Source: Eledone cirrhosa (lineage: Eukaryota). Taken from it: a DNA stretch of 64,000 nucleotides. Made by a program: the position numbers and the translations under genes. Where the stretch lies: positions 146,382,001-146,446,000 of the forward strand of contig OZ024743.1 of the NCBI GenBank assembly GCA_964016885.1, in the 5' to 3' direction. How positions within the stretch are numbered: position 1 is the stretch's first letter; each line of letters starts with the position of its first letter. Positions 4,547 to 37,462 of this stretch are shown one piece after another. The notes under the pieces were generated by a model. It saw only the letters and a list, made by a program, of their open reading frames with translations, did no database searches and was not told the origin of the DNA.

Positions 4547-6424
4547 AGTTTGAAAAATTCTCTATCATTATTCGTACCGTTTTTGCTAGATTTATTTTTC
4601 CTAATGGTGATTTTAATAATGCTAAAGTTGAATTAATAAAATGCTGTTAATTTTATGCCATCAAATGAGTTTTATACAAGACTGCTTTTCTTATCTTTAC
4701 GTTGGGCGAGGAAACTGAGCTGGTGATCTGGTAAAAAATGTTATGGAACACTAACCAATAAACAATATATATTTCCAAAAGACACTAGAATGAAGACCGT
4801 ATTGAAGATATGAACAGTGATGGTGGATTAAGACATCTAGAATGGATATTTTTGGGGGGTTTGATTGAAAGATTAGCTGAGATGAGTGTGGTATTAGGAA
4901 AATTTGACTGCAATTTGTATTAGCTTATTGTTTAGAGGTTAAATATATATGCAGGACTGATACACAGTCTTTTGCATAAGACTACAAGGTTTATTTACAG
5001 TCTTAATATATAGGAACCTGAAATTACTGGAGTTCTGTATAAAATTAAATGAAAGACTCTCCAGATTGTTGTTTATGATGAGCTACAACTCAATCTATAA
5101 TCAAAGTCAATTCAGCTATAACCATCCTGTATTTTTCCTTGCATGGTACACTCAAGACCACATTACCTAATGTGTCCTCCTCCTAAAATAGTAGAGTGTG
5201 ATCTGAAGGTAATTTGGTTACTATTCCTAGGAGTTAGATCAACCGCATAGAGACTCCCATGTTGGCTGAACACACTCCAGATTTAATTAACCAATTGTGG
5301 AGGTGGAGATCAATGAAACATTTCCATGAATTTCTGTATATGAATATATACACATACATATTATACAGATGGCTTGCAGGAATGTAGCAGCATTTTGTGT
5401 TTAAGGGGAAACAGTAGTGCTTTGTCACTGTGTTAGTGACTATTTCATAGGAAAAACTTTAATACATTTTCAGAAAATACACAAACTACATTGCTCCCCC
5501 TCTCTTTCTATCTTTCTCACAAACATATGTGCATGCATGCACGTGTGTTCACATATATACATACATCCATACGACACCCAAATACACGTTCTCTTTCTCT
5601 TTTATAGAGTCAAATGTACATATGCACATGTATACTCATACATGCACACATGCATGCTCATACATGCACACATGCATGATCACATATATGTACACACACA
5701 TAGACACACACACACACAAATAGACGCACACATACACACACATACACATACTAAGGAAGATTACAGGATGTGATTTTGTTCACTTGCCACTTTTCCCAAC
5801 CTGATTACTTGTAACAAATGAAGTGACAATTTCTTTGTCATATATAACTCCTAATTCCATTGTTGATGAAAAAAACAAAAAAACAAACAAAAACAAGAGG
5901 AAAGTAAGGAATAAGGAAGGAAAGTAACGAGGAAAGAAAGAAAAGAAAAGGAAAACATTTTAGAAGGTTGAAAGGAATAGAAGAAAACTTAAGTAGAAAA
6001 ATCTAGAACAGTTAGAAAAAAACAAAAACAAAAACAAACAATATAAGAACAGTAACAATAATATTAATTCTGAAAGTATGTAACTTAAGTCCTTACATGA
6101 CTGCTTCATGCTTGATTGCACTGGAATATATTAGTAGCTTTAGCAAGATGGGATTAAAGGGAATTTATGAATAATAATTAAACAAGTAAAATAAAAAGAA
6201 GGAAAATAATTAATAAAAAAAAAAAAATTTAATGTCAGATTTTTGTCAGATCATATCAAATGTGAAAAGATACCTTCTTGAACCTCTTCAAAGTTGAGTG
6301 TGATTGGTTAATAATGAAACCAAGAATATATATATAGACTGCTATATAATCAACCAGCGATAGATACGTACAATTTCTACAGAAGCAACACTGTTTTCAC
6401 TGAAGAGATATTTCTTATTTCTAT

Positions 6425-12544: not shown

Positions 12545-12893
12545 CAATGATATTAAAGAAATGGAAACTATATTTATAAAACCATATTTATTTTATTTTA
12601 TATATTTTAAGGGTACCAAAACTTTGGTACGCTCTCATCAGATAAAATACTAAGTTTGTTTTATAAATGTTGACATAACCAAGAAAAGATACCTCAACGG
12701 TTCAAGTTTTTCTTGGATAGCTGAAACTTGAACCGTTAAGGTATCTTTTCTTGGTTATGTCAACCAAACTTATGTAAAACAAATTTTGTATTTTATCTGA
12801 TGAGAGTGTACCAAAGTTTTGGTACCCTTGAAATATATATAATAGAAGAAATATGGTTTTATAAATATAGTTTCCATTTATTTAATATCATTG
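12545..12893. mobile_element. Fold-back element with hammerhead motif in both arms
   Basis: Arms ~12545-12709 and ~12724-12893 are reverse complements. The right arm continues as a unique tail to ~12990 before (TA)n. Confidence 0.85.
12791..12847 (+). ncRNA. Minimal type I hammerhead ribozyme motif
   Basis: TTTTAT-CTGATGA-GAGTGTACCAAAGTTTTGGTACCCTT-GAAA-TATATA-TA-ATAGAA. The mirror copy at ~12591-12647 (-) has GAAA>AAAA. Confidence 0.75.
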
Positions 12894-17545: not shown

Positions 17546-18488
17546 AAAGCAGTATATATTTTTTTAATGATTTGTTGTGATATATAATCAAATACACTGG
17601 ACAAATGTAAATAAATATGTTTTTAAACCTAAGATCAAATCTACTGTTCAAATTAAATCTACAATGTAAAATAAAATCTATCACCCATTTACCCATGTCA
17701 TTCACCATGTCATTCACCATCCCATTAACAAACCAACAAATGAGTCTATATGTGGTTACTTGTCCTGCTAGAAATAGAAGCCAAATCATAAAATTCTCCT
17801 ATCTTAAAAAAAGAACACATGAAATAATGTCTTCCTGGGTTGATCTTGATAATAATATAAATGACTTTCTAGCATTAGCAGTAGGGCACAAGTTTTAGAG
17901 AAGAGTTTAGTCTGTTAACCCTTTTATTACCATATTTTTAATCAAACACACTGTCTATAATTTTCAAATCCTTTTCGAAATAATCAGAAATTTGGAAGGA
18001 TGTAATAATTCAACTAACTTATTATGATGGAAGGTTTTTAGATAAATATAAATACCTTAAAATAAACAGCTTTGTATCATAGAATCAGGTGTAGTTTTGG
18101 GCAGTTTGGTCTCAAAAGGGTTAAATAGAGGCCAATACAATGCTACAACTAACAGGAAGATACTGATCCAAGAGATGAAAATGTTTTTATTAATGGCTGG
18201 CTTCGTTATCTTTGAGATATTGGAAGTTAGTGCAACAAGACCAGCAGATCACCTTTCTTGGGAATTTGGCACACTGTAGCGTACTTCCAAAGATCATGAT
18301 ATATCTCTGTTGTTGTTGTTGTTGGTTATCATAAATAAGCTTTGATTAAACAGACATATCATTAAGGGGTTCAGCTATGACAATCCTGCCTTTTTAGGGG
18401 TATATAGGATTCCATCATCTATGTGTCCTTTCTTTTGTTAAGTTGGTAAGATGTGAGTTGAGGAAGATTTGACTACTATTTCTAACAG

Positions 18489-18769
18489 TTATGTAATAAA
18501 CAACGTAAGATAATTATTTCATTTACCAGTGGTTTCTTGAAAGCAGATATTGTATCTGTTTTCAGTCGTCGGAATGAATAAAAAACATGGTGTTTTACTC
18601 ATTTTATTCATTCCGACGACTGAAAACAGATACAATATCTGCTTTCAAGAAACCACTGGTAAATGAAATAATTATCTTATGTTGTTTATTACATAACTAA
18701 TAAGCTCTGTAGCCTACATAGAGCACTCTTTTTTCCTGTACCTTTCCGATGGAATTACTTCATTTACTT
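18489..18769. mobile_element. Young fold-back hammerhead element with TSD, inserted in an older repeat
   Basis: 97-bp arms 18487-18583 and 18602-18698 differ by one mismatch, followed by a ~70-nt tail. TSD TTTCTAACAG at 18479-18488 and 18770-18779. Confidence 0.85.
18607..18667 (+). ncRNA. Type I hammerhead motif with CCGACGA core variant
   Basis: TTCATT-CCGACGA-CTGAAAACAGATA CAA TATCTGCTTTCAA-GAAA-CCACTGG-TA-AATGAA. Identical mirror copy at 18518-18578 (-). Confidence 0.7.
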
Positions 18770-19019
18770 TTTCTAACAGGTAGAATGACCACGTAGAGTC
18801 TCAACATATAAGTTGTTGTTGTTTAGCCTCAGGTCATGACTGATCCAGATCTATGATCAAATGTATTCTACTCATGACAATCTCTTTTTTTGTTATAAAC
18901 TTGTCCTTCCTTTTTTTAAGATGTTTAGCTATGATATGAGGTTTGAGACACACACACACATGCACACATGCATATGCACACACATACACATACACACATA
19001 TAAGTTTATATGCAAAAAG

Positions 19020-26300: not shown

Positions 26301-27473
26301 GTTTTTTTATTTGGATATGCAGAATAATGCATGCACACTGGCCAACTCTCCTATCAGCAACATAGGAAAATACTTACATGTATATGTAGTGTACTGGGTA
26401 AGGTGAAATATATGTGATGAATGCTACATTGACATTACAGTTCAGCTCTTGCACATCTAGATATTAGAACACATCACAAACTCTACTACTACTCCATTTC
26501 TTCATATTTTAAAGAAGGTCTTACCAGTTTGGCAGGTTTGCAAGGATTGTGAGCACACTCGTTTCTCCACACTAAATAAAATTTAACTCCCCTAAAATAA
26601 TGATGATCATTTTACACAATTTACACAATTCATCATCCAATGGGAGATCTTCTATGTGGTTGCTTAATTTGTTAGAAATAGCAGCCAAATATCCTTCAAT
26701 CACAGTTTAAAGCAAAGAGCATACTGGATACCATGGTTTGAGGCACATTGTTCCTGGAAAGAAAGACAAGATGGTCATAGCTTGAATGCCTTTGATCATA
26801 TTTTTGCTTGACTGGAGCTGACTTTGGCATAAATAACATAACAATATCAATGAAATAGTTATGAAACAGTGAGAGAATATAAAAGGTTTTATGCTGTATA
26901 ATATAATAGAACTACACAACACATTGAAAGTGCTTGTTCACTAATTACTAAGAGACTTAAAATGTATATAAACATCCTAAATTCTCTTTTCGACTTCAAG
27001 ATCTATTAAAATATTAATTCCACTTCTGCTGTTCTAAAGGAGAAGTTTCAATTTTCTAATTTGTTTTTATTGTTTAGCCAGAGAGGGAAGGGTAATATCC
27101 AGGAGCCTTTGTCAGGACCTCTGAAACTAATGGGAGAGAGGGTAGAAGATATTTTCAAACCAGACAGCTGGCCCAAATCCTTGCAACAGAATGGACTCCA
27201 TTAAAGACGTCCAAGGACCAAATGGTGTTGGTGAAATCATAATGGTATTTACTTTATGCCCCAGTCTCTCTAATTTCCATATGTGTAATAATATTGAAAA
27301 ATAATACACTGCATGTAATGATAATCCCAATAATTAACAGAAACATTAATTAATTTTACTTTGAATATCTAATATCTACTGCAACTTGAAAAATGTTTCT
27401 TTCATCCAATATGAGGATTAATATCTCCTTACAAACAGTATAACTTAGACTACATTATTCCCTTCTATGGCAA

Positions 27474-33168: not shown

Positions 33169-33429
33169 GGAAAAAATGAAACGAAATTTCATTTCCCACT
33201 CTTAGTACGGCTGTTACTTAAATATAAGTATGTATACGTACATACATATATGTATACAGACGTACAGTAGTATGTATATATATATACATACATGCACACA
33301 TATATATATGTACGTATGGATTCACCGAACATTTATTATAATGCTCGGTGTGTTTGTAAACAAACATCCCGTATTAAGCCGTAGTGTCCAGCAACCATCG
33401 TTGCTCATTTGTTCAACACTGACAAAGGA

Positions 33430-33472
33430 ACGCTGTACTAGTTTCAAGCTTATTAGCTATCATCAGCAACGT
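33430..33472 (-). ncRNA. Minimal type I hammerhead ribozyme motif
   Basis: Minus strand ACGTTG-CTGATGA-TAGCT AATA AGCTT-GAAA-CTAG-TA-CAGCGT. Confidence 0.8.
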
Positions 33473-33779
33473 ATACCTTCCTGCCAGATTGTTGAACGTA
33501 TATACTTACCTTATGCATATTAACGGCTGAGTAGCCCAATTTGCATATCGAGTGGGTTAATCGGCCGGGTGCACCGAAAACGATAAACGGAAAAAATGAA
33601 ACGAAATTTCATTTCCCACTCTTAGTACGACTGTTACTTAAATATAAGTATGTACATTTTTTCGTTTATCGTTTTCGGTGCACCCGGCCGATTAACCCAC
33701 TCGATGTGCAAATTGGGCTACTCAGCCGTTAATATGCATAAGGTTAGTATATACGTTCAACAATCTGGCAGGAAGGTAT

Positions 33780-33822
33780 ACGTTGCTGACGATAGCTAAT
33801 AAGCTTGAAACTAGTACAGCGT
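33780..33822 (+). ncRNA. Minimal type I hammerhead ribozyme motif
   Basis: ACGTTG-CTGACGA-TAGCT AATA AGCTT-GAAA-CTAG-TA-CAGCGT, with palindromic stem III CTAG and site GUA. Confidence 0.8.
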
Positions 33823-34937
33823 TCCTTTGTCAGTGTTGAATAAATGAGCAACGATGGTTGCTGGACACTGTACGGCTTAATACGGGATGTTTGTTTACAA
33901 ACACACCGAGCATTATAATAAATGTTCGGTGAATCCATACGTACATATATATATGTGTGCATGTATGTATGTATATATACACTTGTGTGTACATATCTTT
34001 CACTTATGTATATTGGTAAAAGAAAACAAGCCGATGTTTTATGAACAAAGTGCTTTGCAATATTCCTTCTGCTCTGAGTTACAAATACTTCCTTGTCTAC
34101 ACCTACCATCAGAAATTAAAGGAACTGGTGATTAGCCCATTAGAAATCTGTAATCAATTGCAATAGGAAATGGCAAACATACATGGTTCCATAACTCTCG
34201 AGGGAGTCGTAGGGCTCTTATTAACACACACCATTTCTATGGCATTTAAACAATCTGGTGAAGCTCAATCCTCTCCAGGTCTGAATACAGCAGATTTCTT
34301 CTAGAGAAAGATAGAGAGAGTGAGAGAATGGGAGTGAGAAAGAGATACAGAGGAAGAATCAAACTCAGTACTAGACTGATACTTTTTTTTATCAACTTTG
34401 AATGAATGAAAGGTAATGTGGACCTTGCCAGGATTTGAACTAAGAGAGCAGAGAGCTGAAATAAATACTACAAAGCATTCTAGCTGACATTCTAATGACC
34501 CTGCCACTTTGCCGCCTATAATATGAAATAGATAAATTAATTAATAAATAGATAAATAATAACATAGATGGATGGAAGGCAAAGTAAGCCCTGGTGAAAT
34601 TTCAATTCAATCCAGAGGGACAAAACTAGATACAGGTGCAATTGATAAATCTACTTGGTTTCTCTTTGAACAGGTATCTTATTGCAATTAAATTGTAAGA
34701 AAAACTGCAACGGTCATCATCATTTTCACAGAGAATGTGATTGGGTAGCATCATACTACTGATCTTACATATAATTTATCTCTGAATGGCATTTCTGCAC
34801 ATGTATTCATAACATTTATCAGCATAGAATTTCATAATCACCCCTTGACATTTTTCAGGCAGTTTGTTTTTCTTTCCTTCTATGTAGATATATTTGTATG
34901 AGATTATGTGTTCATGAGCATATAAATATAAATATGA

Positions 34938-37119: not shown

Positions 37120-37462
37120 TCATCATTCATCATTCCATTTTATGTCCGCTTTTTCTCTGCTTGCAAGGGTGGGATGGGAACTGATTCTGGCTTGATTTCT
37201 ACAGCTGGATGCCCTTCCTAACACCAACCTCATTTACAGTGAGTGCTGGGTGCTTTTTTGCCGTGGCACCTCCACAACCACTTTGCAGTGGAATCATATG
37301 AACCCCAGTCACTATCATCTCAGTTCTACAGCTGAGTAAACTGGAGCAATGTGAAATAAAGTGTCTTGCTCAAGGAAACAACACATCAACCAGTCTGAGA
37401 ATTGAACTCACAACCTTTCGATTGCAAGGCCAATGCTCTAACCACTAAGCCATGTACCTCCA
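37120..37462 (-). mobile_element. Family B SINE
   Basis: Near-identical to 1237-1573 and 28980-29304. Confidence 0.8.

Follow-up and report, generated by a model that had tools for sequence, protein, structure and literature searches.

How does a palindrome with a hammerhead motif in each arm, a tail on one side only and a target-site duplication (TSD) around the whole come to lie inside an older repeat? The locus in question, in a window of 64,000 nucleotides from the Eledone cirrhosa genome (contig OZ024743.1; all positions below are those of the window), had been read in a preliminary description as a sign that fold-back ribozyme units are mobile products that integrate in one step. The layout given there is matched by the coordinates. 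Two inverted arms of 97 nt each (18487–18583 and 18602–18698) lie 18 nt apart and differ by one mismatch (G18505/T18680), and both carry the core variant CCGACGA, at 18613 on the plus strand and at 18572 on the minus strand. The TSD has an exact 10-nt core, TTTCTAACAG, at 18479–18488 and 18770–18779, and reaches 15 nt if one mismatch (A18478 versus T18769) is allowed, with the left copy at 18474–18488 and the right copy at 18765–18779. At the mismatched place, 19 of 19 paralogs of the host repeat have an A in the flank alignment; thus, the right copy is the changed one. The tail, on the plus strand from 18699 to about 18766, is indeed one-sided, but its length is about 67 nt, the roughly 70 nt first described having taken in target bases. 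Each outer end of the insert has 2 nt in common with the TSD: on the left AG, the final 2 nt of the left copy, which are also arm sequence, and on the right TA. What looks like an 18-nt loop is not foreign DNA: it consists of 14 further antisense element bases (18584–18597) and a 4-nt filler, CTCA (18598–18601, plus strand). Being antisense on the top strand, the spacer is part of the tail-less arm. The insert has no ORF.

The host repeat has a left part (18340–18488, plus strand) with 72–91% identity to 40 other places, and a right part (18780–18895, plus strand, right limit approximate) that continues it at offset 0. When the two flanks were aligned separately to 19 paralogs, they joined without a gap: the mean identity of the next 20 nt was 0.53 at offset 0, compared to 0.15–0.43 at other offsets and 0.24 for the insert's own start. 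The proposal that removing the insert rejoins the repeat is thereby confirmed. Relatives had been placed near 5210, 9600 and 42360, and these are present, with junction-equivalent positions at 5233, 9613 and 42380 and a further one at 26669 on the minus strand; in the relatives, 11–13 of 20 downstream bases match. The host repeat is an old, abundant family with internal repeated sub-units. As a target, it is a complex repeat, unlike the usual (TA)n/(CA)n targets of the family to which the insert belongs. Over about 155 positions, the direct arm plus tail departs from the family majority at 2, whereas the host repeat is only 72–91% like its paralogs, which suggests that the insertion is the younger of the two. 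Thus, the single recent integration claimed for this locus is supported by the TSD, the gap-free join and the closeness to the family majority, with the qualification that the insertion is young relative to its host repeat and carries no absolute date.

A check for an empty site in the reads of four sequencing runs (X1, X2, X4 and X6) yielded no clean empty allele; the contigs show presence and not absence, and the result decides neither way. One apparent skip, of 18481–18777, had a 21-nt side and four other letters and was read as a paralog. Contigs of runs X1 and X2, both from one sample, span 18063–18516 with no substitutions and extend past the left junction by 28 letters, an overhang below the tool's bar of 31 letters. 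No bridging of the right junction was seen among the listed contig pieces, and loose ends were seen in run X4 at the right part of the host repeat. The ribozyme–tail region was also observed, with few or no differences, in two other organisms (runs X4 and X6), which suggests that the family, or a sister of it, extends beyond this species.

The hammerhead of the direct arm (18607–18667, plus strand) is of type I, with the core at 18613–18619 (U4C at 18614), a 6-bp stem I, an 11-bp stem II, a GAAA at 18649–18652 and a 3-bp, near-palindromic stem III that is palindromic around one base; the predicted cut falls after the GUA at 18661. The inverted arm mirrors this motif on the minus strand (18518–18578, core at 18572–18566). 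A search of Rfam found no hammerhead family, either in the window at the gathering score or around the locus at E ≤ 10, with hairpin-driven miRNA matches only; the ribozyme assignment therefore rests on a motif-and-stem scan. Whether the core variant is fixed in the family had been proposed as a check, and the outcome speaks against it. An exact 23-mer with CCGACGA has two matches in the 3.0-Gb genome, both being the arms at this locus, against 241 exact matches for the canonical 23-mer. Among the 29 closest other copies, 27 have CTGACGA, one CTGATGA, one CTGACAA and none CCGACGA; CTGACGA is also seen in 130 of 141 readable cores, many of whose loci were chosen by that core. Thus, CCGACGA is a private T-to-C change at this locus and not a family trait. 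The U4C change is reported in PMC3088659 to reduce cleavage considerably in vitro while allowing viroid infectivity, and the hammerheads of animal Penelope-like retrotransposons (PLEs) are described as weak and dimer-dependent in PMC4209133. The whole insert is predicted to fold into a single hairpin (−160.5 kcal/mol). Ribozyme activity is most likely lacking, and the insert is most likely a dead end, as it has no ORF and one long hairpin would bury both cores. Ribozyme core variants in single transposon copies should accordingly be treated with caution and not be taken as functional alleles.

The insert had been assumed to have relatives, and an arm-plus-tail query against the 3.0-Gb genome indeed returned 2,463 first-look candidates; among the 40 of these that were scored, the other full-length matches are 92–98% identical. 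An inverted arm lies within 1.5 kb in 12 of the 29 closest other copies. Of ten longer regions examined, the locus L090 is a whole, decayed element, in which the hammerhead and the same tail run unbroken into a frame with the RT motifs A/B/C and a GIY-YIG-type core, followed by a 3′ UTR that is long and of low complexity and then by a second direct repeat without a tail. At L021 and L160, the tail also continues into the same sequence as in L090, and in full-length copies it leads on into the 5′ UTR and ORF. Whereas L090 is broken and no intact ORF of the window's exact subfamily was seen, a sister subfamily with 84% nucleotide identity to L090 has intact 714-aa ORFs, which start about 110 nt past the tail end of the same hammerhead–tail leader. 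Pfam and PDB searches of the ORF found nothing significant, and some members of the nearest Atlas clusters (0.96–0.99) carry GIY-YIG, RVT_1 and HTH_animal families, so that the RT/endonuclease identity rests on the motifs and Atlas features. The protein of the L111 copy has the RWK, DKT, CxCx5C linker, CxxC and CxH motifs and lacks the CCHH, while RWK, DKT, the linker and CxH were found in L090; the GIY-YIG core of the protein has no cysteines. The description of the Hydra clade in PMC8557442 gives this same set, namely RWK, DKT, the CxCx5C linker, no CCHH, and CxxC plus CxH. Judged by these motifs, the parent is a PLE with Hydra-clade signatures. An assignment to the Neptune clade was dropped on the motif check for want of a CX2-5CxxC linker, and so was an ORF N-terminus made up of an ATG before the ribozyme plus an intron, the intact ORF starting about 110 nt past the tail. 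A 5′ UTR intron that genomic copies retain is one trait of EN+ PLE insertions; putative signals for such an intron, GT...CTAAT...AG, lie at 18659–18711 and, as judged from the sequence alone, are conserved across copies. Given its many intact ORFs and its tandem copies at intervals of about 4.3 kb, the sister subfamily is probably active, or else very recent; a fragment of its thumb gave 33,712 first-look candidates. Downstream of its intact-ORF copies (L109–L114 and L117) there is often an inverted pLTR that belongs to a third subfamily, is about 73% identical to the window arm and has an altered core such as CTGAAGA or CTGTAGA. We consider the hairpin in all likelihood a doubly truncated insertion of a PLE, and not a self-mobile ribozyme unit; as such, the locus itself is ordinary, being one among thousands of PLE stubs.

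The ends of the copies bear on the way in which such stubs are built. We examined 108 loci, with 14 duplicates removed; the second copy in L089 and arms shorter than 56 nt or below 85% identity were dropped, and 151 arms in 106 loci were scored. First, the arm ends fall into two classes, with 66 of 151 at family positions 92–105 and 73 at 159–168, against 12 elsewhere. Second, among the 106 loci, 39 have two arms head to head, two have them in direct orientation (L090 and L091), two tail to tail and one is complex, with the other 62 having a single arm within 1.2–1.5 kb. Third, the two end classes are strictly paired: every one of the 39 head-to-head pairs joins a short arm, with its end at 82–105, to a long arm that ends at 120–168 (35 of them at 159–168), and none has two tails. 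The one-short/one-long rule also holds in 26 of 26 pairs of the subset picked by core pattern only, in which short and long ends are about equally common. The window copy follows this plan: its inverted piece (18487–18597, minus strand; family positions about −14 to 97) stops at the first fixed terminus, its direct piece (18602–18698, plus strand) covers positions 1–97, and its tail (18699–18766, plus strand) stops at the second, with a TA common to the target. It is an exception in its surroundings, as 120 of the 139 termini adjoin dinucleotide repeats or microsatellites, which is why TSDs are unreadable at most other copies. Upstream, both arms are truncated at variable points and either may reach further; a single sharp 5′ stop, as at an RNA start or a cap-templated C, was not seen, the stops being spread, with 28 of 141 between −20 and +8.

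These patterns bear on the possibility that the palindrome arose after insertion, through replication or repair that duplicated a solo pLTR-plus-tail copy in inverted orientation, or that it is an assembly artefact. Such an origin would suit the private change common to both arms and the right junction left unbridged among the listed contig pieces. However, the TSD encloses both arms, the inverted arm stops at a family-wide terminus, the same layout recurs at 39 loci, and the one-sample contigs cross the left junction without substitutions (by 28 letters), which together leave this explanation barely any credence.

The pairs also show that their two arms are of common origin. In the 31 pairs used for variant counts (8 of the 39 having been left out for fewer than 60 shared columns), subfamily variants are shared within pairs in 25 cases, compared to 4.0 expected between loci, and a 3-nt deletion is concordant in 30 of 31; sharing this far above chance indicates that both arms come from one source. 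In a one-strand fold-back, cDNA primed at the tail end would snap back at the upstream hairpin and copy itself to position 97. The element itself provides a hairpin at the junction, self-priming at junction palindromes has been proposed for rotifer PLEs (PMC3846280), and the U4C change in both arms would follow at once. Against this, the tail-less arm at our locus holds bases missing from the tail-bearing arm, namely the antisense spacer. In 8 of the 39 pairs, the tail piece starts at 22–105 while the inverted arm covers 1–98; the tail piece thus starts too late to have been the template for its partner, which contradicts fold-back as a general rule. Further, pairs with spacers of 2.5–5.9 kb follow the same end rule. 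We regard one-strand fold-back as unlikely; priming from both target strands at two sites fits better. Partial snap-back of the top-strand cDNA is possible as an added step.

The reading that we prefer for the locus, and hold to be likely, is a 5′-truncated insertion of a hammerhead-bearing PLE in one event, with both cut strands priming reverse transcription. In this scheme, the cuts made by the element's endonuclease in the two target strands would be staggered by about 13–15 nt, with a 3′ overhang at each end. Priming from the top strand would occur at an inner start site (position about 97, where 2 nt, AG, match) and priming from the bottom strand at the end of the tail (about 165, where 2 nt, TA, match). 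Both cDNAs would terminate prematurely close to the AATAAAAACA/TGTTTTTATT hairpin, which lies upstream of the ribozyme, and be joined head to head with a short filler, and gap filling would then produce the TSD. The T-to-C change may already have been in the source copy of the template RNA, a copy absent from the assembly, or may have been copied from one arm to the other, through hairpin-templated repair or a partial snap-back. In more general form, PLE inverted pLTRs would reflect a fixed two-ended priming, with one target strand always initiating at the tail end, its partner always at the inner site, both on RNA from one source copy, and the truncated cDNAs then joined head to head; we lean toward this generalization with less assurance than toward the reading of the locus itself. 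Two-ended priming agrees with the in vitro work of PMC11167929, in which both strands were cut and extended by a purified PLE protein, with initiation at two sites that mark the boundaries of the tail. If true, it would explain the one-sided tail and would make this locus a clean natural record of the reaction: the copy gives a readable stagger of 13–15 nt, while most copies lie in microsatellites, where the cut geometry is unreadable. PMC8557442 counts the formation of PLE inverted pLTRs and of the one-sided tail among the open questions; the 39/39 pairing rule is directly testable in the existing in vitro system (PMC11167929).

One feature calls for something beyond two independent cDNAs. 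Rare changes shared by both arms number 4 in the 31 pairs, versus 0.13 expected, and two independent cDNAs alone do not explain a genome-unique change in both arms. Such a change needs a missing source, arm-to-arm conversion or repair, or partial snap-back, which the data do not tell apart. All four belong to pairs with a short spacer (4/18 vs. 0/13, p = 0.12), a tendency that counts in favor of one-strand fold-back. Ongoing arm conversion in tight palindromes finds no support, since arms with short spacers resemble each other no more closely (divergence of 2.8 vs. 2.5 differences, p = 0.41). As to RNA editing as the source of the T-to-C changes, the arm-specific differences are symmetric between T>C (13) and A>G (10). 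One of the four, the both-arm change of the locus L026, is not genome-private, as it occurs in 17 places in the genome.

The same locus, L026 (G000:C11:29035810), bears on whether a fold-back copy could have been re-mobilised whole, that is, whether transcription of a palindromic copy and its reverse transcription in a single run took it to new sites. The junction filler ACTCATT occurs at only two places in 3.0 Gb, the present locus and L026, with no third copy of it or of the CTCA filler junction; both copies show the same T-to-C departure from a perfect snap-back, and a G at that position is found in 2 of 65 scored arms, again at these two loci. This common filler slightly favors re-mobilised fold-back copies, for which we see a small chance. 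Conversely, the two loci differ in their T-run and filler length, each has its own both-arm change that is absent from the other, no other CCGACGA copy exists genome-wide, the other centre junctions inspected all differ from copy to copy, and both outer ends lie on ordinary family termini. We therefore rate wholesale re-mobilisation as quite improbable, below even one-strand fold-back. A self-mobile fold-back unit or MITE was likewise rejected, as the centre junction pattern is present at two places only and the inverted repeat does not reach the end of the insert on the side of the tail. The suggestion that fold-back ribozyme units are themselves the mobile products is not supported: the hairpin is better described as a by-product of a protein-coding PLE, with variable centre junctions and a variant core that is private. 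An unusual centre was seen in one of the 39 pairs, L157, whose filler comprises about 1.5 telomeric TTAGGG repeats after GGG and looks as if telomerase had extended a free cDNA 3′ end.

Several of these traits are already on record for PLEs: the inverted pLTR, one-sided tail, TSD of 8–10 bp and junction palindromes (PMC3846280; PMC8557442), and dual hammerheads 100–700 bp apart on opposite strands (PMC4209133). The inverted pLTR, one-sided tail, TSD and hammerhead are thus published PLE traits. Truncated insertions of EN+ PLEs (PMC3846280; PMC8557442, Fig. 2) resemble the locus in their head-to-head pLTRs, one-sided tail, junction palindrome and pLTR hammerhead. The TSD of about 10 bp here, or up to 15 nt, compares to 8–10 bp in rotifer copies (PMC3846280); the locus differs from the published stubs in having no ORF between the repeats, an extreme double truncation, and in a tail of about 67 nt versus 30–40 in published EN+ PLEs (PMC3846280; PMC8557442). 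EN+ PLEs have a single ORF with the RT followed by a C-terminal GIY-YIG, and the family is linked to such an ORF through L090 and the sister subfamily (by motifs and Atlas features). With respect to the Hydra clade as described in PMC8557442, the likeness lies in the motifs and in the Hydra-like (TA)n insertion, which is paralleled by the 120 of 139 family termini next to a dinucleotide repeat. The unit length of about 4.3 kb (intact sister, tandem spacing) departs from the 'generally <3 kb' given there, as do the long low-complexity 3′ UTR and an ORF about 110 nt past the tail. The Anolis Poseidon PLE studied in vitro (PMC11167929) is like the family in its two adjacent start sites bounding the tail, AT-rich targets and extension of both strands; its start sites come from a clade different from that of our family, and its ORF starts inside the ribozyme, in contrast to about 110 nt past the tail in the family's intact ORF.

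The strict pairing rule is what the family adds to the published PLE traits, and its mechanistic value is modest. L1 5′ inversions have a variable second start point and non-overlapping pieces. In the present family, by contrast, the second start lies at a fixed place near position 97, and the ribozyme region is usually present twice, once in each piece. LINE-1 twin priming, as covered in PMC10760644, likewise involves a second priming at the target site, cDNAs joined by microhomology and an outer TSD. Our literature search, which had older subscription papers outside its scope, returned no PLE paper using the term twin priming for inversions. Non-LTR retrozymes (PMC7229834; 10.64898/2026.07.22.740005) are also short non-coding PLE-related sequences with a type I hammerhead. 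They are described as head-to-tail tandem units (10.64898/2026.07.22.740005), whereas the locus is a single head-to-head insertion, and no tandem arrays of the short unit were found among the 108 loci; we therefore set aside a retrozyme identity.

Other hammerhead-like sequences occur elsewhere in the window. A second head-to-head hammerhead pair with long inverted arms, from an unrelated family, lies at 33330–33930, with cores at 33466 (minus strand) and 33786 (plus strand), CTGATGA and CTGACGA, respectively. Single type I hammerhead-like motifs of other families, with a short palindromic stem III, are present at 12797, 29843 and 2035, all on the plus strand. Finally, near-identical tRNA-like matches on the minus strand, at 1507–1564 and 37391–37454, are likely the heads of a tRNA-derived SINE.
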